In this document: positions 564 to 13,700 of the stretch, one piece after another | Numbering within the stretch: position 1 is the first letter of the stretch | How the letters are laid out: each line of letters starts with the position of its first letter | NCBI GenBank assembly: GCA_038046605.1 | Contig: JBBSVW010000076.1 | Coordinates: 1 to 15,119 of the forward strand | DNA length: 15,119 bases | Source of the DNA: Candidatus Micrarchaeota archaeon | Lineage (GTDB): Archaea; Micrarchaeota; Micrarchaeia; Norongarragalinales; SBBD01 | Direction: 5' to 3' | The notes under the pieces: generated by a model | What the model was told of the DNA's origin: nothing | Database searches by the model: none | The model's input: the letters and a program-made list of their open reading frames with translations, nothing else | Position numbers and translations under genes: made by a program

Positions 564-1898
564 ATGCAAGAATTCGAAAGCCAGGGCTTGGAACTCAAGC
601 GCGAAATAGAAAATTTCAAGGATGCATCTAAGGCTGTTTGCGCATTTGCAAACACATCCGGAGGGCGCTTGATAATAGGGATATCTTCGGATGGGAAGGT
701 TACGGGCGTGCCGGGCAATTTGGATTCACTCCAGCAAAGGCTTGAAGGGGCAATCCAGCAGGTTTCGCCAGTGCCTTTCCACAAAATTATGGTTGAGGAG
801 CGTGAAGGGAAAAAGGTTGTTGCTGTTGAAATCTACCCCATCGGACAAGGCGCATTCTGCACTTTCGGCGGAATCGTCTACTACCGCGCTGGCAGCACAA
901 ATTCGAAACTCGAGGGCAGGACCCTTCAGGACTATCTGATAAAGCGCCAGATTCTCTCATTCGATGAATCCGCAAGCAAGGCAAAAATTGGCGATATGGA
1001 TTTAGGCAAGCTATCCTCCTTCCTGAAAAAACGCTCTCCCGAGGTGGATTTTGAGGAACGCAAGGCAAAAGAATACTTGGTCAATTTGGGCGTGGCGCAG
1101 CAAAACGGGACTTACGCCATCAAGAATGCAGGCCTTCTTTTTTTTGCAAAGGAGATCGCAATCTTCCTTCCCCAAAGCGAAATCAAGCTCGCAAAATTCA
1201 AGGGCAACTCGCCAGTTGAAATAATCGACTCCAGGTTCGCCACATCGACTTTATTGGAAAATCTAAAGGAAGCGGAGGATTTCATACGCAAGAACACGCG
1301 CACAAGCATTCGAATTGAAAAGGTGCAGCGCGACGAAGTGCCCGAATATCCCCTGAAAGTGATACGCGAAGCGCTTGTCAATGCCCTTGTCCATCGCGAT
1401 TATTTCAGCAAGGATGCCGTGCAAATAAACATTTTCGACAATCGGATTGAGTTCCTAAACCCCGGAACGCTCCCAACGGGTTTAAGCAGGGAAATATTGG
1501 GGACCCTTTCAATCCAGCGCAACCCCCTAACCTATAGGCTTATGCGCGACATGGGGCTTATGGAGGGGCTGGCTACTGGCATCCCCAGAATGAGGGAGGC
1601 TATGTTGGAAAATGGCCTTCCCGAGCCGCGATTTGAAGAGCTGGGAAGTTTCTTTAGGGTCACTATTTACAGCCAGCAATTGGCGCCTAAGGGCGTTTTG
1701 AATGAAAGGCAAACAAGGGCGCTTGCATATTTGGAAAAAAATCCCTCAATCTCATCAAAAACATACGGCCAACTGGTTAAGGTTTCAAATCCTGTAGCGG
1801 TTTTAGACCTAAATGGCCTATGCAAGGAAGGTCTCCTTAAAAAAGTGGGCAAAACTCGGGGATCTTATTACATTAAAGCCCAACTTAATAATATTTAA
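564..1898 (+). CDS. AlbA_2 (Schlafen-like) domain + 'ATP-dependent DNA helicase RecG C-terminal' (HATPase_c_4) domain + C-terminal winged HTH; putative transcriptional regulator, 444 aa
   Basis: Motifs ESQGLELKR...VCAFANTSGGRLIIGISSDG (AlbA_2); EYPLKVIREALVNALVHRDY...IFDNRIEFLNPG...RNP...MEGLATGIPRM (HATPase_c_4); LNERQ...ISSKTY...DLNGLCKEGLLKKVGKTRGSYY (wHTH). Confidence 0.9.
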   Translation: MQEFESQGLELKREIENFKDASKAVCAFANTSGGRLIIGISSDGKVTGVPGNLDSLQQRLEGAIQQVSPVPFHKIMVEEREGKKVVAVEIYPIGQGAFCTFGGIVYYRAGSTNSKLEGRTLQDYLIKRQILSFDESASKAKIGDMDLGKLSSFLKKRSPEVDFEERKAKEYLVNLGVAQQNGTYAIKNAGLLFFAKEIAIFLPQSEIKLAKFKGNSPVEIIDSRFATSTLLENLKEAEDFIRKNTRTSIRIEKVQRDEVPEYPLKVIREALVNALVHRDYFSKDAVQINIFDNRIEFLNPGTLPTGLSREILGTLSIQRNPLTYRLMRDMGLMEGLATGIPRMREAMLENGLPEPRFEELGSFFRVTIYSQQLAPKGVLNERQTRALAYLEKNPSISSKTYGQLVKVSNPVAVLDLNGLCKEGLLKKVGKTRGSYYIKAQLNNI

Positions 1899-1947
1899 TA
1901 ATACTTAATAATAACCTAATAATATTTAATAATAATTTAAGGATTTC
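1881..1947 (+). repeat. Tandem array of five 10-bp units (C/T)(T/C)TAATAATA overlapping the stop codon; reverse complement of the promoter repeats at 525-555
   Basis: Units: 1884-1893 CTTAATAATA, 1894-1903 TTTAATAATA, 1904-1913 CTTAATAATA, 1915-1924 CCTAATAATA, 1925-1934 TTTAATAATA. Confidence 0.9.
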
Positions 1948-2002
1948 TTGCCTCCAATTCGTTGATTTTCATCGTTTCCAATCAGCCAAACCTTAGGTCC
2001 GA

Positions 2003-2962
2003 TCAGCACGCCGCCGTGCTCACATTATAAGTCGCATTATGCGGATAATCCAGCTTGAACCACGAGTAGCTGCTGTTAGTTACATCGCATCCCCCGAATA
2101 CGCTTGAATTGAAATACAAATGGTCGATGATGGTCTGGTTGCCCTTGGTGGGATGCCCGACTGCGGCAATTTTCTGCAGGTTCACAAAGCTCTCCAGCCC
2201 GATAACCCGCGGCGAGAGGGCCGCATACTTGCCCTGCAGGTAATTCTTCCCCTCCATCCGGTCAAGGAAGCTCCCGCCGTCATCGGTGCCCATATAAACT
2301 TCCTGCGTTATCGCCTGATCCACTGACCAACTGCCGTAAACCGTAAAGTTCGCCCGTTTGATGAGCCTTTTTATGAAGCCGTTGGTATTCAGCGGATAAA
2401 GCACATCCTCCATGCCTTCCAATGGCAAAATATAGCTCTCATTGTAAGTGCGCACAATCGAGACGATGCCATCGGTGTCCGTCGCATTTACGAACAGGAG
2501 CAGGGAAAATTGGAGGTTGAAGCTGTCGTAAGGCGCCACATTCAAATACAGGATGGTGATGTTCGTATCGAACCCGAACCGCCTCCCTTGGGCGCTCATT
2601 CGACTTGCCCAATCCAGCAAAGAGGAGCCCGCCATGAATTGCGAACTCTTGTTATAGATGGTGGCATTGTACATCAGTTCGACAATGCCCGCCTGCGAAT
2701 TGTTCAGGGCGGTGCCGTCCACGTCAATTTCGTTCACCGCGGAAATCAGCGCCCGCTTGGAGGTGATGGCAAAAATCCGGGGCACATCCTGCGAGATGGA
2801 ATTCGCAAAATTAGAAATCTCTATCCCCCTGATTTTCAGCGAAGCCAGCTCGTCGCGGGAGCCCGCCGCCTCCTGATAAGTGATTAGGTACAGCAGGATG
2901 GGCACGACTAGCAAAAGCGTGATCAGCGAATACACGATGCCTTTGTGCTTCCCTCTTGGCAT
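2003..2962 (-). CDS. Pilin-like/pilus-associated exported protein with class III-like signal peptide, 319 aa
   Basis: Start reassigned to ATG 2962, giving MPRGKHKG|IVYSLITLLLVVPILLYLI (basic-Gly followed by a hydrophobic helix). Contains EDVLYPLNTNG, GGSFLDRMEG and GLESFV motifs, which I recognise from archaeal pilin-cluster proteins. Many N-x-S/T sequons. Confidence 0.75.
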   Translation of the reverse strand: MPRGKHKGIVYSLITLLLVVPILLYLITYQEAAGSRDELASLKIRGIEISNFANSISQDVPRIFAITSKRALISAVNEIDVDGTALNNSQAGIVELMYNATIYNKSSQFMAGSSLLDWASRMSAQGRRFGFDTNITILYLNVAPYDSFNLQFSLLLFVNATDTDGIVSIVRTYNESYILPLEGMEDVLYPLNTNGFIKRLIKRANFTVYGSWSVDQAITQEVYMGTDDGGSFLDRMEGKNYLQGKYAALSPRVIGLESFVNLQKIAAVGHPTKGNQTIIDHLYFNSSVFGGCDVTNSSYSWFKLDYPHNATYNVSTAAC

Positions 2963-3088
2963 AATTCTTATCCCGAAATCCTTATGTTGTTTTCCAATTG
3001 ATCGAATATTCTTAAAACGAAGATGCGAAAAATATCTATTGCGATTTGATGTGCCGTGCATCCTTTTTTACCCTGCGCATTTTTTTTC

Positions 3089-3198
3089 TACACCCAAACC
3101 GAAATCGTCATATCCACAACACCTCGAGGGGGATAATCCCCCTACTCGTGTTGCCTCTACCCCCTTATTTACACCCAAACCGAAATCGTCATATCCAC
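3089..3198. repeat. Exact 29-bp direct repeat (3089-3117 and 3170-3198) duplicating the last codons of the large vWA gene around a 52-bp insert
   Basis: TACACCCAAACCGAAATCGTCATATCCAC occurs twice. On minus both copies read V-D-M-T-I-S-V-W-V-stop (TAA in the gene, TAG in the copy). Confidence 0.95.
3117..3165 (-). other. G-rich hairpin element, copy A (homologous to 12943-12988)
   Basis: Minus strand AGGGGGTAGAGGCAACACGAGTAGGGGGATTATCCCCCTCGAGGTGTTG. Outer stem CAACAC/GTGTTG, inner stem AGGGGGA/TCCCCCT. Confidence 0.7.
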
Positions 3199-6100
3199 CG
3201 GCCCCCAGGCGTTGGGCACAAGCTGCAGCACGTTCGCCTGCGCGTTGACCTCCCCGCCGATGATGATATCTATTGGGTTTGTGCTCTCGCCCGCATTTCC
3301 TGAATTTGAAGGAATGGTGAAATAATTGAGCTGTATGAGCAATGTCAAAATTGCGCAGTCCATCGCATCGCCGTTGGGATCGCTGCACGAAAGGAGGCTT
3401 GCCACATCAACTGGCGCAGGATCAAAGCAATTGCTCGTCAGGCTGGGTGTGCAGAGGGGCAAATCCGCCCCAAACGCAACGTTCGTGGAGCCGTCCTCTA
3501 TACCGTCATGGTTGTTGTCGTAATAGATGGTAACATTCTTCCCCTTCAGGTTCGGGTAGATGTTCCCATACGATGTTGATGCCTTCAATCTGGATGTGTA
3601 AATCACCCTGTTGAACGTGGAGCAATTCTGGCTCGTGAATGTTTTATTCAATCCGAGTTCGTCCTTCACATAGTTGAATTCATCCGTTTTCAGGAGGCTC
3701 ACCGGCAAATAAACGTGGAACGGGTCGCCCATATCCGTGTATAATAAGTTGAAACTGGTCAAATTGAAAACATTCTTGAATCCCGATGTAGCCGACGAAT
3801 TCACATAAGCTCCGCTCGTCCAGTAATTTCCGGAATAGCTGGTCATCTTTGCATCCACAATTGGATTAGCAATGTTCGATGGCGGTATGAAAAACGAGCC
3901 GTTGCAGCCTGGGAAAGTGTCGGTTTCCGATGTTACCTGTATGACCTTGTATTCGGGCGCCGGCACAGCTGGCGTATATTGGAATTCTATATACGATTCC
4001 GGGTAAAGCGTTGCTCGCGTGAGGTTTCCGGAGAATGTGATTTCCTGCGTGGCAGTAGTTTTGGTGTTGATATTGAGGGCGATTTGGCAATAGATGTTTC
4101 TTAGTTCTGAAGCATTCGTGCTTGTGTAGAAGGTGCCATTTCCCGCTTCTGCAATAGCCTCCAACGTTTGATTCGCATTCAGGCAACTAGCCAAAGGCCC
4201 GAATCCAACCGAATCGATTGTCACATTTGAGAAGGATTTGAATATCCTGTCCGCGGAATACATTGCATTCATGGATGCATACGACTGGTTGAAGAAATTG
4301 GCGCAGTTTTCATAGGAGCCGTCGGTGCCGCATGAGTTGCTCGTCCCGGAAGTATTGCCCTCAAAATCCTGCGCAAGGAATGCCGTCACGATCCACGAAT
4401 TCCCATTCCACATCACGATTCTTCCGGTACCGCCAACCGCATAGCCCTCGGAGGAATTGAGAATGGCTATCGCTTTCAGGGGGTCATTGGTATTAGGGAG
4501 TGTATATGCCGTGGTGGTGTTGATTGGGGGTGTGGGGATCCACCGGTATATCCGGCCTGTCGAAGTTGAGGCGAACGCAAGAGTCGAATTGGCAAAGGAT
4601 ATTCCCCTGATGTCAGGAGTGCTTGATGCCCTCTCCCTGAACCAATTGTTTCCTCCGTTCCAGCGGTATATTTCATCGGCATCCGTTCCCGCCAATGCGA
4701 GCGTGGAATTCCAGCCATCAAGTGAGTAAATGACCTGTCCTCCCAAATCCACATGCTGCTCCCAATTCGATTTCAAACCCTTCCATGCCCATATTTGCCC
4801 AGATGTGGTGCCTGCAAAAGCCCAGGAGCCGTTGGCGATGGTGACGGAATACCATGTCTGTGTGCCAGTATCATTGAACACCGCCCAATTCGCGCCATTC
4901 CAGCCGTATATTTCCCCATTTGCACCGACAGCGAAGCCGAATGTATCGTTCCACATATCTAATGCATTCAAATTGGAGCCTCCAACATCCTGGCTTAAAG
5001 CCCATGAATTTCCATTCCAGAAATATATCTCTCCCGCATTGGCCGCTGCGAAAGCGTAAGTTGAGTTGAGCATTGAAATTGCATTTATATGCTGGGTTGT
5101 GAGCGTTCCCTGAAAGCCCCAATAATTGCCCGTACGCCTGCTTACATTGCCATTATTTTGAACAACCATGCTGCTATACCCTCCCGTGTTGCTAGCCGCC
5201 ACTCCGTTGATTACACTGCAGGTGGTAGTAGGTATGCTTCTTTGGTTGGTCTGGCCGTCCGTCATGACAATCACGTACTTCTGCCTTGCCGGCGAGCTCT
5301 GGGTTTTCAGGATTTCCCACGCGCGGTTTATGGCGCAAGATACGCAAGTGCTTCCGCTTGGAACGTAGCCGTTGATCATATTCGTCAAATACGTGAGGTT
5401 AGCGGTCCCGCCGTTCTGCAAGCTGGTATTGTGCACGGCGCTTGTGCTGAAATTTACAATTGCCACTCGGTTCCCCAACAATGGCGTCCCGCCGCCGCAG
5501 GCAGACGTGTTCCCGCCTAAAATGGCATTGATGAAGTCCTTGTCCAAGCATCTCGCTACCGAAATCCTGTTCGTATTCGGATCGCTGTATACTGCGGGAT
5601 TGTTGCAGTCGACGATGTTATTCCCCGAACTTCCGCTGTCCATTTGCCATGCCATGCTCCCCGAAACATCCGTAATTAACACCACGTCTACCGTGCCGTT
5701 GAGCTTGCCGCCGGTAATGTTCGCGCCGGTTAGGAACCTCAAGGGCATCGTATTCTGGCTCAAATCCACGTACGTTATCCCATTGGCTGCGAACAGCGCC
5801 GTGAAATTGGCATTGTTGATCGTTATGCTCTCGGTCTGATTGTTGCCGGTGTGGTTGAGGAAAGTGGTGTTTCCGATCAGGCCTAATGTCGTATAATTGG
5901 CAAACGAATACAGCCTGATGAGCGCGTTCATCGAGGTAATGTTTCCGGGAACATAAAACGAATCATACAGGTTCACGAGCCCGTCGATTCCGGGAAAACG
6001 GTATCTCATCGTGCCGTTGATGTAAGGGATGAGCTGGCTCGTGGTATAAGTTACCCTCAAATAGCCGCCTCCGAAATATTGCTTCGTGATGTTCGCGCTC

Positions 6101-6912
6101 GGGAAAACGAACGTGAAATTATTCATCCCGCCTGCCGTGAAACCGGAAATGAACGAATCATTCGAAAGGATGGTCCAGTTATTGACCGAAAAGTTGCCCC
6201 CGCTCACATTGAACAGTTTGCAATTTGAGCTGTTCCCGTTGAGGCACATCAAGAAGTTGCTTTCCGAATTCACTTCCAAATAAATTTTATTTATGGTTGA
6301 GTTGATCGGCACGTCCGTGATGGTCGCAGTAAGGTTCCCCTCCCCCACGAACCCGCCGAAGAAGAAATAAGCGTTATCCTCCTTCCCGAGGATGTTCTCA
6401 AGGAAGGCCCTTGCGACGAATCCGGTTGAATTCCTGTTCCTCGCAAATCCCGATGCGGCCTTCCTGCTTGCAGAAACGAAATTGGTGGCGTTCATCACTG
6501 TGGAATTGTAAATAGTGTCGCTCCCGTTGATGATGAAGCTCCATTTTAGCTCTGCAGATATCAGCCCCCCCAGAAGCGCCTTTGTAATATTGGCAGCATC
6601 CCCAAGGTCCTGCGGCGTCTGCGAAGCGGATAAGCTGCCCAGCACATCAAGCAAAGTCGAATTCAAATCCTCTTCTGTCAAAGCCGGCGGCACCCTGTTG
6701 AACATCGACGCAATCACCGGTTCGTATCTTACATCCCTGATTTTCGTCTTCGAGAGCACGTCTATTGCATCCTCCGCCTGAAGGTGCAAATATTGTGAAG
6801 AGGTCTGGGGTGCGGGGCTTCTTGAAGTGAGCAAGGCCACAATCGGGATGAGAGCCAGCACTATCAAAAGCGCCAGTATCGCATCAATTGTGAACGCTAT
6901 CCCCTTGCCCAT
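3169..6912 (-). CDS. Giant pilin-like adhesin: class III-like signal, vWA domain with intact MIDAS, inserted 7-repeat beta-propeller-like module, ~1247 aa
   Basis: Start ATG 6912 after an AGGTG RBS; MGKG|IAFTIDAILALLIVLALI. vWA motifs VDVVLITDVSGSM (DxSxS at 5656-5670), NRVAIVNFS, GSTCVSCAI, YVIVMTDG, TIDSVGFG and GNGTFY. Trp-rich ~40-aa repeats at ~4378-5211. Confidence 0.88.
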   Translation of the reverse strand: MGKGIAFTIDAILALLIVLALIPIVALLTSRSPAPQTSSQYLHLQAEDAIDVLSKTKIRDVRYEPVIASMFNRVPPALTEEDLNSTLLDVLGSLSASQTPQDLGDAANITKALLGGLISAELKWSFIINGSDTIYNSTVMNATNFVSASRKAASGFARNRNSTGFVARAFLENILGKEDNAYFFFGGFVGEGNLTATITDVPINSTINKIYLEVNSESNFLMCLNGNSSNCKLFNVSGGNFSVNNWTILSNDSFISGFTAGGMNNFTFVFPSANITKQYFGGGYLRVTYTTSQLIPYINGTMRYRFPGIDGLVNLYDSFYVPGNITSMNALIRLYSFANYTTLGLIGNTTFLNHTGNNQTESITINNANFTALFAANGITYVDLSQNTMPLRFLTGANITGGKLNGTVDVVLITDVSGSMAWQMDSGSSGNNIVDCNNPAVYSDPNTNRISVARCLDKDFINAILGGNTSACGGGTPLLGNRVAIVNFSTSAVHNTSLQNGGTANLTYLTNMINGYVPSGSTCVSCAINRAWEILKTQSSPARQKYVIVMTDGQTNQRSIPTTTCSVINGVAASNTGGYSSMVVQNNGNVSRRTGNYWGFQGTLTTQHINAISMLNSTYAFAAANAGEIYFWNGNSWALSQDVGGSNLNALDMWNDTFGFAVGANGEIYGWNGANWAVFNDTGTQTWYSVTIANGSWAFAGTTSGQIWAWKGLKSNWEQHVDLGGQVIYSLDGWNSTLALAGTDADEIYRWNGGNNWFRERASSTPDIRGISFANSTLAFASTSTGRIYRWIPTPPINTTTAYTLPNTNDPLKAIAILNSSEGYAVGGTGRIVMWNGNSWIVTAFLAQDFEGNTSGTSNSCGTDGSYENCANFFNQSYASMNAMYSADRIFKSFSNVTIDSVGFGPLASCLNANQTLEAIAEAGNGTFYTSTNASELRNIYCQIALNINTKTTATQEITFSGNLTRATLYPESYIEFQYTPAVPAPEYKVIQVTSETDTFPGCNGSFFIPPSNIANPIVDAKMTSYSGNYWTSGAYVNSSATSGFKNVFNLTSFNLLYTDMGDPFHVYLPVSLLKTDEFNYVKDELGLNKTFTSQNCSTFNRVIYTSRLKASTSYGNIYPNLKGKNVTIYYDNNHDGIEDGSTNVAFGADLPLCTPSLTSNCFDPAPVDVASLLSCSDPNGDAMDCAILTLLIQLNYFTIPSNSGNAGESTNPIDIIIGGEVNAQANVLQLVPNAWGPVDMTISVWV

Positions 6913-7041
6913 GCTTCGCACCTGAAAATTTATAGCCCCGAAACGGATGAAAATTCAAAAATATTTTATTTTGTAAACATTTTCGTCTTCCTTTGCTGCT
7001 TAAGCCCGCAAGTGCCTTTTCCCATACTCAAAACATGCCGT

Positions 7042-9831
7042 TTACACCCAAAATGATATCGACATGTCCGACGGCCCCCATACGTACGGCACCAGTGAAA
7101 GCAAATCCACCTGCACGTTCAAATCGGCCGTCAGAATGATGTCTATGGGGTTGCCAATTGTACCAGAAACATTGAGATTGCCGTAGGTAGTTACCAAATT
7201 GAGCTGGTTCAACAGTTGTATGAATGCATTATCGACTGCATTTGTGCCGGGGCTCAAATCCGAGGCATTGACCGGATTCGGGTCGAATTCCGGGAGGTTT
7301 GACCCCACAGCGACGTACGAAAAGCCGTCCCAAACCCCGTCGTGATTATTGTCATAATAAACCGTAACATTCCTCCCGATGCCTTCAGGGAACACGTCCG
7401 TATAAGTTGTGGAAGCCTTCAGCCTCAGCGTGTAAATGACCCTGTCATATTGGGAGCAGATGGGGCTGTTGTAGGAGGTTGAATTGCCCAGCACGTTGTT
7501 CGCGTAATTCGTCTGGTTAACCCCGAAAAGTTCCACCGGCAGATAAACATTGAACGGATCCCCGAGGTTGACATATGCGGGCTCGTTGTAGTTTGAGAGG
7601 TTGAAAATTTCGCGCGGTAGGTTTCCGGTCAGGCTGTTATTGATAGAAACCGCCTTCGTCCAGAAATCGGATGAATAGGCGGTTCTCCTCGCATCCATAA
7701 TTCTCACGGACGGCGGCACGAAGAAGCTGCCATTGCAGGAGGGGAAGACATCCGTTTCCGCATTCAGCGAAATTTCCTTATACCCCGGATCCGGTGTTGC
7801 GGAATCGTATTGGAACTCAATGTAGGAGTCCGGATAGAGGGTGGAATTGGAGCCCTGCACGCTCACGACTTGCTGGAGGAAGGTTACTGTTTTAGTTATT
7901 TCTTTGGCGATATCTTCGTAAATTTGAAGCAATTCCGAATAATTGCTGGAAGAATATGCTTTCCCGCCGGTACAATTTGCAATGGTGCTAAGCAAGCTCA
8001 TGTTTGCATAGGGACCGAAGCCGACGGCGTAGATGGTGATATTGTTTCCGTTCTTCGCGTAGGGCGAAATGCTTCTTGTTTGGCAGGCAAGGTCAATGCT
8101 TTGCTTGTTAGCCTGGCTAGAGGAGCAGGAGGGGGAGTATGATCCGACCGATTCATCTGAATTATCGCATTGGTCAGGATTACCATCCGTCATCAATAGA
8201 ACTGCCCGGATCTTGCTGTATGAGCTGTATGGCGCCTTGGGGGGCAATGCATCCAAAGCGTCCGTTTCAGGTTTTGCTGCGAGGGGCAGTAATCTTGCGC
8301 GTGCCTCTGCGATCGCGCATGCCAAGCATCTCTTCGCTCCTCCCGGAGGATTCGGCACTGCATCAATGACCGTATATAGGGAATTTATATTATTCGTAAG
8401 CGCCTGGTCGGTATTTGAAGGCTGCGGTGCATTATTCCTGTACCCAAAGTGGGATATCCTATTTCCGCTGGTGCCATTTAAAACTACTTCCACGAATTTC
8501 TTTGCTACTGGGCGGGTGCCGTCATAAAGTGTGGCGTTTCCACCTCCGCACGAAGGAAGCGAACCATCGTTTATTAATTTACAAAGTGACATCGAGCCTG
8601 CATTTCCTGTAGTTATTACAGCATCCACGCCTCCTGTACCGTTGCTGAAATTCCCGGCCCTATGCCCAAATCTAAGGGGGTTAGTTGTGCTGCTTATTGA
8701 TGGGTAAGTTAACCCGAAACCGGCAAGCTGTGCTGCAATCGTATCATTGAATATTTTAATATCGTACAAAGTGCCATTGCCCTCCGGAACCTCCCAAATC
8801 GTCGCATTCCCTATCTGCAGGAAGGTCTGCAAATCCGTATAGAGATGCAGCCGGATGGTCATGTTCGTGATGTTCCCAATAACGTAAAACGAATCATAAA
8901 TGTTAGCGGCGCCTTCCGCTCCGGCAAAGTAATACCGGAACATCGGCACCGGCAGGAATTCATCCGTGGAATATTGCACCTTCAAATAGCCGCCGCCGAA
9001 ATACGCGCTGGAGAGCGTGTTGTTCAGGAACCGGAAAGTGAAATTGTTTACCGCTTGATCCTGCACCAAATCAAGGCAGGTCTGGTTTGTAACCGTCCAA
9101 TTGTTAACGCCAAAGCCGCCGGCATTCGTGAGGTTGAAGGTGGCGCAATAATCGTTGTTGATGTACATTGAAAAATTGTCGATCGCATTCACTTCCAAAT
9201 ATATTTTCTGGATAGTCGCGTTGAACGGGATGCCGCGGATGGTCGCCGTGATGTTTCCCTGCCCGATGAATCCGCCGAAGAAGAAATATTTCGAATCCTC
9301 CTTTCCGAAGATTTTTCCCAAGGTCGCAGACGCCGCATAACCCGTGGAGCTCTGGTTCCTCGCAAATCCCGATGCCGCCTTCCTGCTGACCGAGACGAAA
9401 TTCGTGATGTTGATGGCAGTGCTGTTGTAAACCACATCCGAGCCGTTGATGGTGAAGGCCCATTGCAATCCCCTTGGCACCAGCGGTTCTATTAGCATTT
9501 TTGTGATGTTCGCGGCATCCGCCAATTTATCCGCATCCTGTGTTGCCCACAGCCCGCCGAGAACATCCAGGATTGAGGAATTCAGGTCGTTGTCCTTCAA
9601 TACCCCCTCCCTGAAGAGGTTATCGATTACCGGCTCATTGCGGACATGCCTTATTTTCATTTTGGAGAGCACGTCCACCGTATCCTCGGACTGCAGGTGC
9701 AGGTACTCGTACGCCGTTTGCTGCGATGTGTCCCTCGAGGTAAGGACGGAAATCAGGGGGATTGCGGCCAGGATTACCAATAGCGCCAGTATCGCATCAA
9801 TTGTGAACGCTATGCCCTTTCGTTTATCCAT
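7042..9831 (-). CDS. Giant pilin-like vWA-domain protein, tandem paralog of 3169-6912, with degenerate MIDAS and no propeller insert, 929 aa
   Basis: MDKRKG|IAFTIDAILALLVIL. Collinear with the paralog (YLHLQxED, SRKAASGFARN, FFFGGFxGxGN, YFGGGYL, YDSFYV, TLYPxSYIEFQY, GDPF, NPIDII, WGPxDMxISxWV). vWA motifs VLLMTDG, TIYAVGFG and CTGGKAY are retained. Confidence 0.88.
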   Translation of the reverse strand: MDKRKGIAFTIDAILALLVILAAIPLISVLTSRDTSQQTAYEYLHLQSEDTVDVLSKMKIRHVRNEPVIDNLFREGVLKDNDLNSSILDVLGGLWATQDADKLADAANITKMLIEPLVPRGLQWAFTINGSDVVYNSTAINITNFVSVSRKAASGFARNQSSTGYAASATLGKIFGKEDSKYFFFGGFIGQGNITATIRGIPFNATIQKIYLEVNAIDNFSMYINNDYCATFNLTNAGGFGVNNWTVTNQTCLDLVQDQAVNNFTFRFLNNTLSSAYFGGGYLKVQYSTDEFLPVPMFRYYFAGAEGAANIYDSFYVIGNITNMTIRLHLYTDLQTFLQIGNATIWEVPEGNGTLYDIKIFNDTIAAQLAGFGLTYPSISSTTNPLRFGHRAGNFSNGTGGVDAVITTGNAGSMSLCKLINDGSLPSCGGGNATLYDGTRPVAKKFVEVVLNGTSGNRISHFGYRNNAPQPSNTDQALTNNINSLYTVIDAVPNPPGGAKRCLACAIAEARARLLPLAAKPETDALDALPPKAPYSSYSKIRAVLLMTDGNPDQCDNSDESVGSYSPSCSSSQANKQSIDLACQTRSISPYAKNGNNITIYAVGFGPYANMSLLSTIANCTGGKAYSSSNYSELLQIYEDIAKEITKTVTFLQQVVSVQGSNSTLYPDSYIEFQYDSATPDPGYKEISLNAETDVFPSCNGSFFVPPSVRIMDARRTAYSSDFWTKAVSINNSLTGNLPREIFNLSNYNEPAYVNLGDPFNVYLPVELFGVNQTNYANNVLGNSTSYNSPICSQYDRVIYTLRLKASTTYTDVFPEGIGRNVTVYYDNNHDGVWDGFSYVAVGSNLPEFDPNPVNASDLSPGTNAVDNAFIQLLNQLNLVTTYGNLNVSGTIGNPIDIILTADLNVQVDLLSLVPYVWGPSDMSISFWV

Positions 9832-10592: not shown

Positions 10593-11006
10593 TCACGCTA
10601 TAATTATTTCCCCATTTGTATTATTGATCAAGTTCAGGCCCTGCCTTGCTCCGCCCGTGACATTTGGGGTGAGAAGGGGGAAGCTTTTCGTGTAGTTTTC
10701 GCCGTATATGATGTCCAGCCTTTGCTCATCATTGGTTATGTTTATCGTATAGTTGCTGTTCGAAAGCCCAAAGGGCATGTAAAATTTGGAACTGTACCCA
10801 TCGCCGACTGAAACGGCAATATTGATGTTTATTGCAGCAATCCCCCCGGCCTTATCCGCCTCCAGCGCATCCTGGCTCCTGCGGATTGAGTTCAGCCGGC
10901 TCGCCGCCTCGGCGCTGAAAAGTATGAGGAGCAGAAGCAGGAAGCCGAAGTAAGTAACGAGCTCGATTCCCGCTTGTGCCTTTTTAGGAGGGATAGCCAT
11001 CTTCAT
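10593..11006 (-). CDS. Type IV pilin-like protein with class III signal peptide (Q+1/E+5 type), 137 aa; alternative start 11000
   Basis: KKA|QAGIELVTYFGFLLLLLILF; INIAVSVGDGYSSKFYMP motif. Confidence 0.85.
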   Translation of the reverse strand: MKMAIPPKKAQAGIELVTYFGFLLLLLILFSAEAASRLNSIRRSQDALEADKAGGIAAININIAVSVGDGYSSKFYMPFGLSNSNYTINITNDEQRLDIIYGENYTKSFPLLTPNVTGGARQGLNLINNTNGEIIIA

Positions 11007-11023
11007 CTTTCGCCATCTTGCAT

Positions 11024-11536
11024 TTATTCCGTGATGTTCACAAAATTTGTTTCCGCTTTAATAAGTACCCTAATCCTTCCCAATCGTGTCGGGAGCGAGC
11101 CTGTCACGTTACCAATTGTGACCGCATAAATCTGGCTCACGCCCCCTGCGGTATTCAGCTTGATTAGAACCTCCCTACCCGAGGGATCATTGCCAACGGA
11201 GGTCGATTCGATGTTATCCGGCATATCCAAATCCAGGTAAATGCTAGCCGGGGGCCCTTGCACATAAACGGAATCCGCCGCATCCTTTATTTTATTCACG
11301 GCAACCCGGGCGTAAGTCACATCAAGTTCTCCCTTGGTATCCGAAAGCGATGAATTCACATAAAGCCAAAGCGGCAGGATGATTGCAATTGCAAACCCCA
11401 GCATCACCATGTATTCCATGGCGGCCTGCCCCCTTGTTTTCGTCAAGCGGGTGTGAAAACAAAGTGATGGATTATTATCTGCGGATTTCTCTTTTTCCTG
11501 CCTATGATTGATTGCTTTTTTGCCACTCATTTCCAT
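11024..11536 (-). CDS. Type IV pilin-like protein with class III signal peptide (Q+1/E+5 type), ~170 aa, first gene of the pilin cluster
   Basis: TRG|QAAMEYMVMLGFAIAIILPL; AVNKIKDAADSVYVQGP motif. Start ATG 11536 was chosen for its spacing to the TATA box at 11560-11567; 11530 is an alternative. Confidence 0.85.
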   Translation of the reverse strand: MEMSGKKAINHRQEKEKSADNNPSLCFHTRLTKTRGQAAMEYMVMLGFAIAIILPLWLYVNSSLSDTKGELDVTYARVAVNKIKDAADSVYVQGPPASIYLDLDMPDNIESTSVGNDPSGREVLIKLNTAGGVSQIYAVTIGNVTGSLPTRLGRIRVLIKAETNFVNITE

Positions 11537-11559
11537 TCTTATCAATTAACCTTCCCGGC

Positions 11560-11567
11560 TTTATAAG
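11560..11567 (-). promoter_or_regulatory. Putative TATA box of the pilin cluster (leaderless transcript)
   Basis: CTTATAAA on minus, ~24 nt upstream of ATG 11536. Confidence 0.55.
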
Positions 11568-11648
11568 CAACAGCCTCAAAAGCTGATTTTATCTCACGGA
11601 TGGATCGAATTAAGGTTCCGGGAAAAAACTAAAAATCAGATGGGCAAA

Positions 11649-12050
11649 TCAGGGATTTTTCCTCTTTTCAAAATATTTCATGAAGAAAAGCTCCTTATGG
11701 TTTGTTTCCTTGAATCCAAATGCCTTCCCGATATCCTTGATCTTCATCGCAATTGCGATGTTGCAAATTATTGCCAGCCAAATCAGGACAAAAAGCGCCG
11801 TGACATAGGTCGTTTCGCTTATTGGCAGGAATAGATCGGGTGAAAATGACGAAAGGAAGTTTACTGCAACAATCCCGCTAAGGATTGCCAATAGGAAGCT
11901 GGAATACATGATCCAGGTTATGACCTTTTTCAATAGCTCATCGCTAAGGGCCGCCCTTGCGCCGCGCAGCTCGTAAATTGCAACTGCACTTCCAATCACG
12001 GAAACGGCAAAGAATGCCGCTTCCAAACCCAGGACAAATATCGAAACCAT
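11649..12050 (-). CDS. Small integral membrane protein (about 3 TM helices, basic C-terminal tail), 133 aa
   Basis: AGGTGA RBS 5 nt before ATG 12050 (the track's GTG 12059 is part of the RBS). Three long hydrophobic segments. Confidence 0.75.
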   Translation of the reverse strand: MVSIFVLGLEAAFFAVSVIGSAVAIYELRGARAALSDELLKKVITWIMYSSFLLAILSGIVAVNFLSSFSPDLFLPISETTYVTALFVLIWLAIICNIAIAMKIKDIGKAFGFKETNHKELFFMKYFEKRKNP

Positions 12051-12235
12051 TTTGCTCACCTATCCGTTTGCAAATCCCAATTGTTTTTCCCTAATTTCTT
12101 TCCATTATTTTTTTGGGGGCCAAGCCATTCTAAAAACCATTTCATATTCTTCTTCCTTTCCAAACCATTCCGTATCTGCCATCCAAAACTCATTTTGAAT
12201 CTACCAACCAAAATGATCCCATATGCCCGTTTTCA

Positions 12236-12802
12236 TTATTTGTTCAGGCTTATGACCTTGTCTGAAATCCTGCTAAGGCCGTTCAATATCTCCGATTTCA
12301 TGTCATCCTCGACCGAAAGCATTATCCCCTGCAGGTTCTCAAGCCTGATTTTGCTTGTCAGGAAAAGCGCGAATTTCATGATCTCGTTGATGCTGTTGTA
12401 AACCGTGAGTGTGGATGGGGAATCAAACACGACGACCTTCTTTCCCGGCAAGGCAAGGGCCATCTCGTTCACGGCCATCGCTATGGCCGAGAGGTTGTTT
12501 GGCTGCACATACACCTCATGCTCCGTATGCTTGATGTACTGCTGCGTTAGGGTGGAGATGCAATCTACCGTGTAAATTTTTCCCTTGTCTATCTTGTATT
12601 CGTCATACAGCTTGGTCATCACTGCTGCCGGCCTGATCATGGTGACATATATCACGGAATTCCCCTCGGCGATAAGCGCCTTTAGGAGGGATAGGTTGGT
12701 TTCGAGGTAGCTGTTCGAATCGCTGACAAACATGATGATGTAATTCTCCGGAAGGCCTTTTAGCCCATCTTTCAATTTTTGTGATACGCTATCCGATGCC
12801 AT
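12236..12802 (-). CDS. RecA/KaiC-fold (FlaH-like) protein lacking a Walker A motif, 188 aa
   Basis: Pattern NSVIYVT..RP, IYTVDCIS, KKVVVFDSPSTL..YN...IMKF...L, GIMLS and SDKVI matches the RecA/KaiC-like alpha/beta core. No GxxxxGK[ST] is present. Confidence 0.7.
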   Translation of the reverse strand: MASDSVSQKLKDGLKGLPENYIIMFVSDSNSYLETNLSLLKALIAEGNSVIYVTMIRPAAVMTKLYDEYKIDKGKIYTVDCISTLTQQYIKHTEHEVYVQPNNLSAIAMAVNEMALALPGKKVVVFDSPSTLTVYNSINEIMKFALFLTSKIRLENLQGIMLSVEDDMKSEILNGLSRISDKVISLNK

Positions 12803-12826
12803 ATGGGAATATGGAGGCAGGGTGCC

Positions 12827-12841
12827 TATTTATGGTTTTTC
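12827..12841 (-). promoter_or_regulatory. BRE/TATA-like promoter of the KaiC-fold gene
   Basis: Minus strand GAAAAAC-CATAAATA, ending 24 nt before ATG 12802. Confidence 0.5.
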
Positions 12842-12874
12842 ATGCCCGGAACTTGGTTAAATTCGTTTTATACT

Positions 12875-12890
12875 AAAAATCCCTTAAGTA
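12875..12890 (+). promoter_or_regulatory. BRE/TATA-like promoter upstream of the G-rich non-coding element
   Basis: AAAAATCC-CTTAAGTA; expected start site ~12912-12915, just before the G-rich structured stretch. Confidence 0.4.
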
Positions 12891-12911
12891 TTGAAAAAAT
12901 TATTGATTCAC

Positions 12912-13019
12912 AGAGGTAACTAGGGGGGAGGCGGCGCAATTGAGGGGGTAGGGCGACACGGTAGGGGGATGCTTCCCACTTGGTGTCGGGGCTTAGCCCC
13001 CATGGGGTGTCAGAAACAC
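12912..13019 (+). ncRNA. Candidate small structured RNA or leader containing hairpin element copy B (12943-12988); boundaries approximate
   Basis: Stem CGACAC/GTGTCG with inner GGGGG/TTCCC; second hairpin GGGGC-TTA-GCCCC (12988-13000). Homologous to 3117-3165 with a compensatory change. No known RNA family recognised. Confidence 0.4.
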
Positions 13020-13026
13020 TTTAATA
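13011..13026 (+). promoter_or_regulatory. BRE/TATA-like promoter of the wHTH-ATPase operon
   Basis: CAGAAACA-CTTTAATA, 32 nt before ATG 13059. Confidence 0.45.
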
Positions 13027-13058
13027 CCCGCCAATGATAATAAGTCCGATTCCCTGGA

Positions 13059-13700
13059 ATGGCAAAACTGGACACATCCATCGACCGTCTGGTCGAATAC
13101 ATCAAGATGAAGAAGAGCTGCACTGTGGATGATGTATCCAAAGCGCTTGGCATGGGGGCAAAGCAAGTTGAGGAGCTTTCCGAAATTCTTGCGGAAAGCG
13201 GCCTTATCGATGTGCGGTATGAATTTTCCGGCATCCGGCTATTCCCAAAAATTGTAAAGAAGGAAGGATTGGATGATGCGGCGGGCAAGGCTAAAGTCCT
13301 ATCCGTTGTTGATAGGCTTGAGGGGGTAAAGCGCGAACTTACCGATGCCGAAAACATGTTCATTTTCTCGGGCCGGGATATTATCCGAAAGGTCGAGAAT
13401 GCAAAGGCGCATTTTAGGGAAATCGAAAAATTAAGCTTCCCAAAGGAAAATGCAAAGGAATTAGATGCGAAGATGAACGAGCTGGATTCCTCCCTCCTAA
13501 TATTCGAGGAAAAGATTGCAATCCTGCAGCAGGCAGCAGTTGACATAAAGCAGGAGGTTGATGCATTCAAGGCGCAGGTGCAAATTTTGGATCCCAGCCG
13601 GAAAACCGGCAGGATCAAATTCCCCTCGCTTGGAAATTTCATTCGTAAAATAACCGGAAAAATGAGGCGAAATGCCCAAAACCCAAAGGTCGATGCATGA
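13059..13700 (+). CDS. N-terminal winged-HTH plus coiled-coil protein coupled to the secretion ATPase, 213 aa
   Basis: TSIDRLVEYIKMKKSCTVDDVSKALGMGAKQVEELSEILAESGLIDVRY has a wHTH pattern, followed by a heptad-rich charged region. Its stop overlaps the ATPase start (ATGA 13697-13700). Confidence 0.75.
   Translation: MAKLDTSIDRLVEYIKMKKSCTVDDVSKALGMGAKQVEELSEILAESGLIDVRYEFSGIRLFPKIVKKEGLDDAAGKAKVLSVVDRLEGVKRELTDAENMFIFSGRDIIRKVENAKAHFREIEKLSFPKENAKELDAKMNELDSSLLIFEEKIAILQQAAVDIKQEVDAFKAQVQILDPSRKTGRIKFPSLGNFIRKITGKMRRNAQNPKVDA

Follow-up and report, generated by a model that had tools for sequence, protein, structure and literature searches.

G-rich hairpins in a Micrarchaeota genome as copies of a putative mobile repeat

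What are the two similar G-rich hairpins that lie between the genes of a pilus locus in an uncultured archaeon, and what do they do there? The stretch of DNA analyzed here (the window, 15,119 nt) is contig C76 (JBBSVW010000076.1) of a Candidatus Micrarchaeota genome (GCA_038046605.1, hereafter G000), which comprises 1.64 Mb on 106 contigs. The initial annotation of the window had described an unrecognised structured element occurring twice, with base-pair covariation, and had offered a cis-regulatory element, a small RNA scaffold or a tiny mobile repeat tied to pilus expression as possible readings. Our analysis reveals that the two hairpins are not a pair peculiar to the pilus locus, as about 70 copies exist in G000. 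[quoted passage not shown] The element spreads within genomes, lies almost always between genes, and is absent at orthologous sites in relatives.

Both hairpins were located at the coordinates that had been given, copy A on the minus strand (3165-3117) and copy B on the plus strand (12943-12988). Their similarity, counted by hand as about 37 of 49 columns, amounts to 38 of 49 in a global alignment. The score of this alignment is 24, compared with a mean of -7.1 and a maximum of 9 among 2000 shuffles, so that the resemblance clearly exceeds that of shuffled sequence. The shared 5' motif together with the start of the stem has exactly two matches in the window, and not one of 200 dinucleotide shuffles contains any. 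The compensatory change from A-T to G-C in the outer stem is real: copy A carries CAACAC/GTGTTG, copy B CGACAC/GTGTCG. Copy A folds as a nested hairpin with -19.5 kcal/mol (z -2.64, equalled by 2 of 200 shuffles), and copy B does so with -17.8 kcal/mol (z -2.16, equalled by 6 of 200). The opposite strands fold about equally well. The inner stem had been reported as kept in both copies; each copy does form the nested hairpin, but in copy B this stem is partly degraded.

The window contains no tRNA genes. Scanned against Rfam at E<=10, it gave a sole overlap, Hammerhead_3, with 19.8 bits against a gathering score of 48.5, and when 20 sources were scanned, namely 19 short element loci plus the 3.3-kb region L021, no match lay on any element. 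The novelty with respect to Rfam therefore stands, as no family reaches its gathering threshold on the element. Nor did searches of the literature on repeats in archaea, Micrarchaeota and DPANN list a description of the element.

Copy number, architecture and conserved structure

Regular expressions retrieve 32-43 copies in G000. An nhmmer search with a hidden Markov model built from these copies raises the number in this genome to 70 (E<1e-3); 46 of these matches are nearly complete. In keeping with mobility, 7 of 595 pairs of copies are at least 95% identical, and the closest relatives of copy A within G000 show 92% identity.

As had been proposed, a covariance model (R1) was built and run on this genome and its relatives, and it found the element throughout the family, with 5-71 matches in each of the 11 family genomes (1.2-1.6 Mb in size). 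Outside the family, 9 of 57 other genomes of the order reveal one to seven weak matches each. A strict 25-mer pattern (<=2 mismatches) occurs in all 11 family genomes, G000 included, and in none of 30 genomes that belong to the order's other families; the reversed pattern, used as control, has 0 matches. When the exact pattern was sought in one genome per prokaryotic species, 41 stretches were obtained, all from Micrarchaeota, Norongarragalinales or metagenome-assembled genomes labelled "archaeon". Viral contigs contained 0 matches, and a scan of metagenome contigs returned 22 stretches with nothing new on context.

Copies with sharp flanks define a minimal unit of about 46-52 nt. It is composed of a head (a G-run followed by TAG) and an outer stem GGCRAC(A/C)C...G(T/G)GTYG, within which lie a conserved GAG/GAG loop, left unpaired, and an inner stem TAGGGGG-loop-CCCCCTA. 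The outer stem, an inverted repeat, begins 9-11 nt inside the 5' end and finishes at the 3' end. A variant, here called type-2, has the head G6-AGGCGGCG and the loop GTGG/TGGG. Longer forms carry extra hairpins between the head and the terminal hairpin, and some copies are nested composites with a second unit inside the first.

Most copies in G000 are preceded by a 5' arm of approximately 20 nt, of either the ATTCGCA..TAAATAA or the TTGATTCGCAAATCAAATTAA type. At one locus of the relative G004 (L122, C53:11041-11445), an element sits between two copies of a 99-nt gene end (...LLPLLYSQI-stop), and a second element, of the short type, comes next. The final 17 nt of this gene are identical to the 5' arm ahead of elements elsewhere, and because of this match the arm may have originated as a transduced gene end. 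The idea that the arm acts as a C-terminal coding tag was discarded: just 8 of 32 copies end an open reading frame (ORF) of >=60 codons there, and they do so in differing frames.

That the structure is conserved with real covariation, as first claimed, holds in two alignments. In alignment A2, composed of 35 copies from G000, 97.6% of 455 cells form standard pairs, compared with 84.0% after shuffling (reached by 0 of 500 shuffles). Both partners have changed in eight of its 13 pairs (63 cells), and slid controls pair in 47-57%. Alignment A3 covers 97 distinct copies from 11 genomes and was fitted to the covariance model, so that it leans towards the model; here 95.3% of the cells pair and double-sided changes affect 11 of 13 pairs (157 cells), a level again reached by 0 of 500 shuffles. 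The A-T/G-C pair noticed in the window is the best covariation example in A3, with 64 G-C and 28 A-U. The 3x3 purine internal loop is unpaired throughout the copies. An alternative pairing of the G-run in the head with the C-run was rejected, since it would place A.C in 9 of 35 copies at one position and G.T in 13 of 35 at another, both uncompensated.

Insertion sites and duplicated gene ends

The locus of copy A is composed of three parts:

3118..3169, minus strand: copy A, a simple element of 52 nt (fold; covariance model R1, 74 bits, E 1.9e-23).
3170..3198, minus strand: last 29 nt of an ORF of 1250 aa with a VWA domain (3169..6921, minus strand), the upstream copy of the duplicated target (repeat family D5).
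3089..3117, minus strand: exact second copy of these 29 nt, an orphan gene end.

The earlier bounds (3117-3165) fall inside or next to this element, which comprises AATAA as a short remainder of the 5' arm, the G-run and TAG head, the outer stem, the GAG/GAG internal loop and an inner G5/C5 stem. Its limits as a repeat are marked by contigs from other loci, which pile up on it and break off at 3118/3119 and 3170-3175. As a repeat should, copy A shows an increase in depth, from about 7 to 50-114. The 1250-aa ORF uses a stop codon that consists of the final TA of the upstream gene-end copy and the first A of the element. The orphan end begins directly after the tail of copy A, and the G behind it gives TAG. 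Both copies had been described as intergenic. Copy B does lie between divergent genes, but copy A meets the 1250-aa ORF at its stop codon and sits between the two 29-nt gene ends. In the relatives G001 and G004, the orthologous VWA gene ends are present as a single copy, without element and without duplication, and R1 (E<=1, filters off) gives no match in three loci orthologous to copy A. The arrangement in the window is reproduced by a 3020-nt contig of a metagenome run (X2), which covers 1587-4606 with 0 differences.

Three orphan ends, the one at 3089-3117 and one each on contigs C9 and C18 of G000, have an in-frame ATG at or soon after their start, 7-10 nt past the GGAGGTG/GAGGTG of the element tail. 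Potential mini-ORFs of 7-27 codons result, which may be due to chance.

Copy B turned out to be the inner unit of a composite of ~110 nt (12902-13012):

12902..12922, plus strand: conserved 5' arm, a leader of the ATTGATTC..TAACTA type that precedes most full-length copies.
12923..12942, plus strand: 5' half of an outer type-2 element (G6-AGGCGGCG), then a 6-nt linker CAATTG; assigned from simple type-2 copies elsewhere.
12943..12988, plus strand: copy B as first reported, a short-type element nested in the outer element (fold, motif match).
12989..13012, plus strand: 3' half of the outer type-2 element, with a small G4/C4-5 hairpin and a GGGGTGTC tail.

The unit boundaries in the initial annotation were incomplete, as the flank duplication at copy A and the composite at copy B had been overlooked. 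Contigs with loose ends that carry the simple type-2 form part from the window exactly after 12936, and the three-part architecture recurs at other loci of G000 (on C26, C89, C55 and C86). An R1 match at 12898-13016 spans the composite (29 bits, E 6e-8), and a promoter-like ACACTTTAATACCC, conserved in G005, follows directly 3' of it. A 2627-nt contig of a metagenome run (X1) covers 10736-13362 with 0 differences. The composite is unsupported as one large structured RNA, its 110-nt fold having a z of -0.34. With the same settings as for copy A, R1 gives no match in nine loci orthologous to copy B. As the orthologous loci in relatives lack the element, copies A and B are lineage-specific insertions, and of the three readings offered at first it is the tiny mobile repeat that fits these empty sites. 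The G000 assembly has two 100-N gaps (C73:75023-75122 and C35:15926-16025); the one on C73 begins inside a composite of the copy B type, so that the element breaks the record there.

The duplication at copy A is not an isolated case. A first test in G000 revealed 12 of 34 copies in which the sequence after the tail repeats 20-90 nt from upstream of the head. When 80 elements from ten relatives were added, tail-adjacent flank duplications were identified in 56 of 116 elements (16 of 38 in G000, 40 of 78 in relatives), and none was detected in the remaining 60. The duplications are 14-99 nt long (median 39.5), and 12 are perfect, e.g., one of 51 nt in G003 and those of 36, 29, 24, and 20 nt in G000. 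The two edges differ in character. The downstream duplicate always begins at the tail (offset -4 to +8), often with 1-3 nt in common with it. The upstream duplicate stops 0-106 nt before the head, which gives a ragged 5' edge; the gap is empty, consists of part or all of the 5' arm, or holds unique filler.

The duplicated stretch is usually the 3' end of a gene, sometimes a 5' end, and in at least eight loci the end of a tRNA. At least nine loci are arrays in which duplicated stretch and element alternate twice, with elements of differing subtypes (e.g., C9:8596-8768 and C73:31384-31829 in G000). At the latter site, one gene end (...YLAKPLLKK-stop) occurs four times with mostly synonymous differences, and three or four elements of different subtypes lie between, which looks like serial insertions at one site.

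Among diverged duplicates (15 pairs aligned without gaps and with >=5 differences each), a single codon phase accounts for 107 of the 158 differences, while the null expectation is 73.9 +/- 3.3 and 0 of 5000 permutations reach this value; the duplicates differ mainly at third codon positions. On C34, they encode the same 18 residues bar one L/V change, despite 14 nucleotide differences. On C90, where the first 14 codons of a gene exist in two versions, the differences are largely synonymous and include three amino-acid changes.

Genomic context was taken from a crude ORF map with 86% coding sequence. Of the 70 matches in G000, 59 are intergenic, among genes of every kind:

Between convergent genes: 21 matches (about 11 expected from intergenic length).
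Between divergent genes: 14 matches (about 16 expected).
Between tandem genes, same orientation as the genes: 14 matches (about 31 expected for the tandem total).
Between tandem genes, opposite orientation: 10 matches.
Inside called ORFs of 258-1023 nt: 9 matches.
At contig edges: 2 matches.

The proposed alignment with local transcription is correct for copies A and B but does not extend to the family, whose tandem copies run 14 with and 10 against the genes. A tie to pilus expression is unsupported: the matches lie between genes of all kinds without orientation bias, at least four adjoin tRNA genes, and nothing ties the element to the genes of the window in particular. No function in pilus expression is indicated, and no function beyond the element's own spread is demonstrated. 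A role as Shine-Dalgarno sequence (GGAGGTG in the tail) or as promoter (A/T-rich 5' arm) was also considered and set aside; distances from tail to gene start scatter from about -32 to 162 nt.

Next to at least four tRNA genes of G000, the element is convergent with the tRNA, its tail 1-6 nt from the tRNA 3' end:

C26:10864-11017, opposite strand: element adjoining a tRNA-Leu.
C4:17587-17777, opposite strand: element adjoining a tRNA-Arg.
C106:10685-10926, opposite strand: element adjoining a tRNA-Arg.
C9:23102-23279, opposite strand: element adjoining a tRNA that remained unnamed.

On C26, a second copy of the tRNA's final 20 nt lies beyond the element. Only 13 tRNA genes of G000 are detectable with ARAGORN (introns allowed) and 16 with the Rfam tRNA model, in a genome estimated to be 90.7% complete, and 7 of the 13 contain long introns (74-233 nt). 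Many tRNA genes of G000 are probably split, intron-rich or unassembled.

How the element may move, and what else it could be

The insertion signature combines a 3' end that is fixed, a 5' end that is ragged with microhomology, and duplications that are long and vary in size, which argues against a transposase making a fixed staggered cut. Such features are hallmarks of target-primed copying or template switching. New copies would arise by copy-and-paste anchored at the 3' end of the element. Candidate routes are template switching during replication, a flap in which the hairpin evades processing, or a structure-specific enzyme as yet unknown. In the flap route, the escaping hairpin would cause the neighbouring fragment to be copied twice; the range of 14-99 nt lies inside the size commonly given for Okazaki fragments of archaea. 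Insertions would survive where the duplicated stretch holds a gene or tRNA end, since there the duplication leaves the gene intact. Conservation of the hairpin probably reflects its being read in single-stranded form during copying or recognition. The element itself is a small hairpin interspersed repeat whose insertion signature may prove new. Only tentatively do we go further: a hairpin of ~50 nt that is copied from a fixed 3' end without a dedicated transposase or reverse transcriptase, by flap or template switching, that duplicates up to about one Okazaki-fragment length per event and, as it often carries along or neighbours a gene end, shuttles diverged gene and tRNA ends between DPANN lineages would represent an undescribed form of prokaryotic DNA movement. 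If this speculative extension were true, the coding-like orphan ends would be the trace of a traffic in gene and tRNA ends between lineages.

Several observations weigh against a mobile element. Among the enzyme families tried (Y1, TnpB, reverse transcriptase, DDE), no cognate enzyme tracks it; all family genomes are metagenome-assembled, with a completeness of 68-97%. No presence/absence polymorphism was seen over the window in four metagenome DNA runs, which were inspected as contigs only, with rare variants dropped, and the contigs of these runs contain no joint that skips the 81 nt of element plus duplicate at copy A; polymorphism may nonetheless exist. Both duplicates bear the mark of coding constraint and are not simple target-site duplications in neutral decay, because their differences concentrate in one codon phase. 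Coding-like duplicates need a further process, for which allele exchange, gene conversion with selection, or import together with the element are candidates. As to the functional strand, G.T exceeds A.C by 45 to 16, but a single pair supplies 35 of the 45, and a strand assignment from these counts was dropped for this reason. Finally, a host function as terminator, RNA stabiliser or protein binding site may exist.

Such a function is at the core of the view that the hairpin is a host-selected cis-acting RNA or DNA module (a bidirectional terminator, a stabiliser of 3' mRNA ends or tRNA trailers, or a site for a chromatin or replication protein), useful in itself and mobile only secondarily. 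The enrichment between convergent genes (21 versus about 11 expected), the convergent tails 1-6 nt from at least four tRNA 3' ends, the T-rich stretch (the reverse of the 5' arm) that follows the reverse-strand hairpin, and the internal loop left unpaired across copies, as expected for a site read by a protein, would all be in agreement with it. We nevertheless regard it as rather unlikely, as 14 of the 70 matches, copy B included, lie between divergent genes, where about 16 are expected, tandem contexts show no orientation bias, the minimal unit has no T-run of the archaeal terminator type, and relatives keep the genes of the pilus locus yet lack the element at the orthologous sites. The coding-like duplicates point in another direction, namely to footprints of integrative elements or mini-circles that bear their own target end, with the hairpin as a recombination or replication signal. 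Most differences between duplicates are at third codon positions, which would be expected of an incoming copy with a past as a functional gene end. The tRNA 3' or 5' ends duplicated in at least eight loci and the serial arrays with differing subtypes resemble what is left by integrative elements restoring the 3' end of a tRNA or protein gene: gene-end direct repeats, a one-sided orphan end, arrays at one site, and frequent tRNA targets. Unlike in these elements, the insert measures just 50-150 nt, the repeat length is variable, and the targets are many and unrelated; more than 50 different ones would each have needed their own donor. Between the direct repeats there is only the element and 0-106 nt of filler, without integrase or cargo. 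The ORFs between neighbouring element pairs, whose translations were inspected by eye, include CoA-binding, ribosomal-protein-like and RelE/ParE-like products (named from these translations) and no transposase-like product. Moreover, the duplicates are perfect at copy A and 11 other loci, where relatives have empty sites; this argues for de novo insertion and makes integrative footprints an unlikely account.

The remaining alternatives invoke known classes of mobile DNA, each with its own enzyme. Trans-mobilisation as a MITE by a DDE transposase whose duplications are long and variable has precedents in the insertion sequences IS1634 and IS1549, whose direct repeats span 8-514 bp and for which the authors state that no mechanism had been proposed; the IS1634 family is reported to be diverse in archaea (PMC2266710). 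No other prokaryotic elements were found to be reported with direct repeats both long and variable. The element shares with them a target duplication that is variable and can be long, and DDE_Tnp_1 genes of about 410 aa, which may or may not be of the IS1634 family, occur in 7 of 11 family genomes. However, no DDE gene was found in G003, G005, G001 and G009 despite 22-50 element matches in each, the two insertion sequences are autonomous and 1.5-2 kb long with a transposase while the element has ~50 nt and no consistent one, its ends are not terminal inverted repeats but a 5' G-run head and an internal palindrome, and the ragged 5' edge is unlike a transposase cut. We judge this route quite unlikely. 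More generally, the element resembles prokaryotic MITEs in being small, non-autonomous, multicopy and intergenic, with nested or truncated copies and flanking target direct repeats. It departs from them in lacking the usual terminal inverted repeats, in having one ragged edge and long, variable instead of short, fixed (2-10 bp) duplications, and in that no parent insertion sequence was identified, the termini of the DDE insertion sequences not having been compared. Archaeal MITEs are listed from Sulfolobus, Halobacterium and Haloquadratum, among others, and the passages of the review concerned name no DPANN host (PMC10969869). A classical REP mobilised by a REP-associated tyrosine transposase (RAYT) is suggested by the inner hairpin, in which GT(A/G)G directly precedes a GC-rich imperfect palindrome: compared with the REP table of PMC2817692, type-1 hairpins show GTAG+GGGG...CCCC(TA) and type-2 hairpins GTGG+TGGGGG. 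Like REPs and REPINs, the element contains a short (20-50 nt) palindrome of this format in tens of extragenic copies (PMC2817692), and it likewise shows gene 3'-end enrichment, a lineage-specific sequence and stem covariation. G000 does possess one Y1 transposase gene (C9:24252-24698, minus strand, 148 aa), but its product is of the IS200 type, with 88.2 bits for the IS200 model (cut-off 55) and 21.8 bits for the RAYT model (cut-off 80), so that no cognate RAYT gene was found. The gene is flanked by other GC-rich hairpins unrelated to the element; Y1_Tnp occurs in 5 of 11 family genomes and the element in all 11; the TnpB zinc ribbon has 0 matches in G000. The match list of G000 contains no alternating inverted pairs as in bacterial interspersed mosaic elements (BIMEs). 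The extra G-run head, the second outer stem, the flank duplications of 14-99 nt and the archaeal DPANN host likewise set the element apart. REPs are not known to have long flank duplications. According to PMC2817692, members of IS200/IS605 do not generate larger target duplications. We judge RAYT mobilisation very unlikely. A retroposon resembling short interspersed nuclear elements (SINEs), copied from RNA by target-primed reverse transcription, would leave just the precise 3' end, the variable 5' truncation or extension, the target duplications of variable length and the junction microhomology observed here. Non-long-terminal-repeat retroposons and SINEs, which are eukaryotic elements, combine a 3' end that is fixed with a 5' end and target duplications that vary, and show microhomology at junctions. 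Yet the reverse transcriptase domain RVT_1 was found in 0 of 11 family genomes (68-97% complete), while three control genomes responded, and the element has no tail repeat at its 3' end; we consider a SINE-like origin extremely unlikely.

With 5-71 model matches per small genome, the element matters for the annotation of family genomes, in which it yields orphan gene and tRNA ends, mini-ORFs, altered C-termini and assembly breaks. Comparable duplications are reported only for IS1634 and IS1549, whose way of producing them is unexplained. That the duplicates diverge in a coding-like manner suggests frequent allele exchange between lineages, which bears on recombination in host-dependent archaea with reduced repair gene sets.

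Other features of the window

The genes of the window encode a Schlafen/AlbA ATPase, two large VWA proteins, small ORF products and a T2SSE ATPase. Other repeats occur among them apart from the hairpins:

520-554 and 1895-1929: 35-nt AT-rich inverted repeat, 91% complementary, which brackets the ORF at 564-1898 almost exactly.
564-1898: ORF with Schlafen/AlbA_2 and HATPase_c_4 domains.
1882-1937: AT-rich direct repeats.
3169-6921, minus strand: VWA-domain ORF of 1250 aa.
7042-9831, minus strand: VWA-domain ORF of 929 aa, adjacent paralogue of the former.

The inverted repeat may represent a cassette boundary or a pair of terminators. The 5' parts of the two VWA paralogues share blocks of 70-77% identity, all displaced by the same ~2.9 kb (repeat families D1-D3, D7, and D15), and only the first of them (3169-6921) ends with the element.

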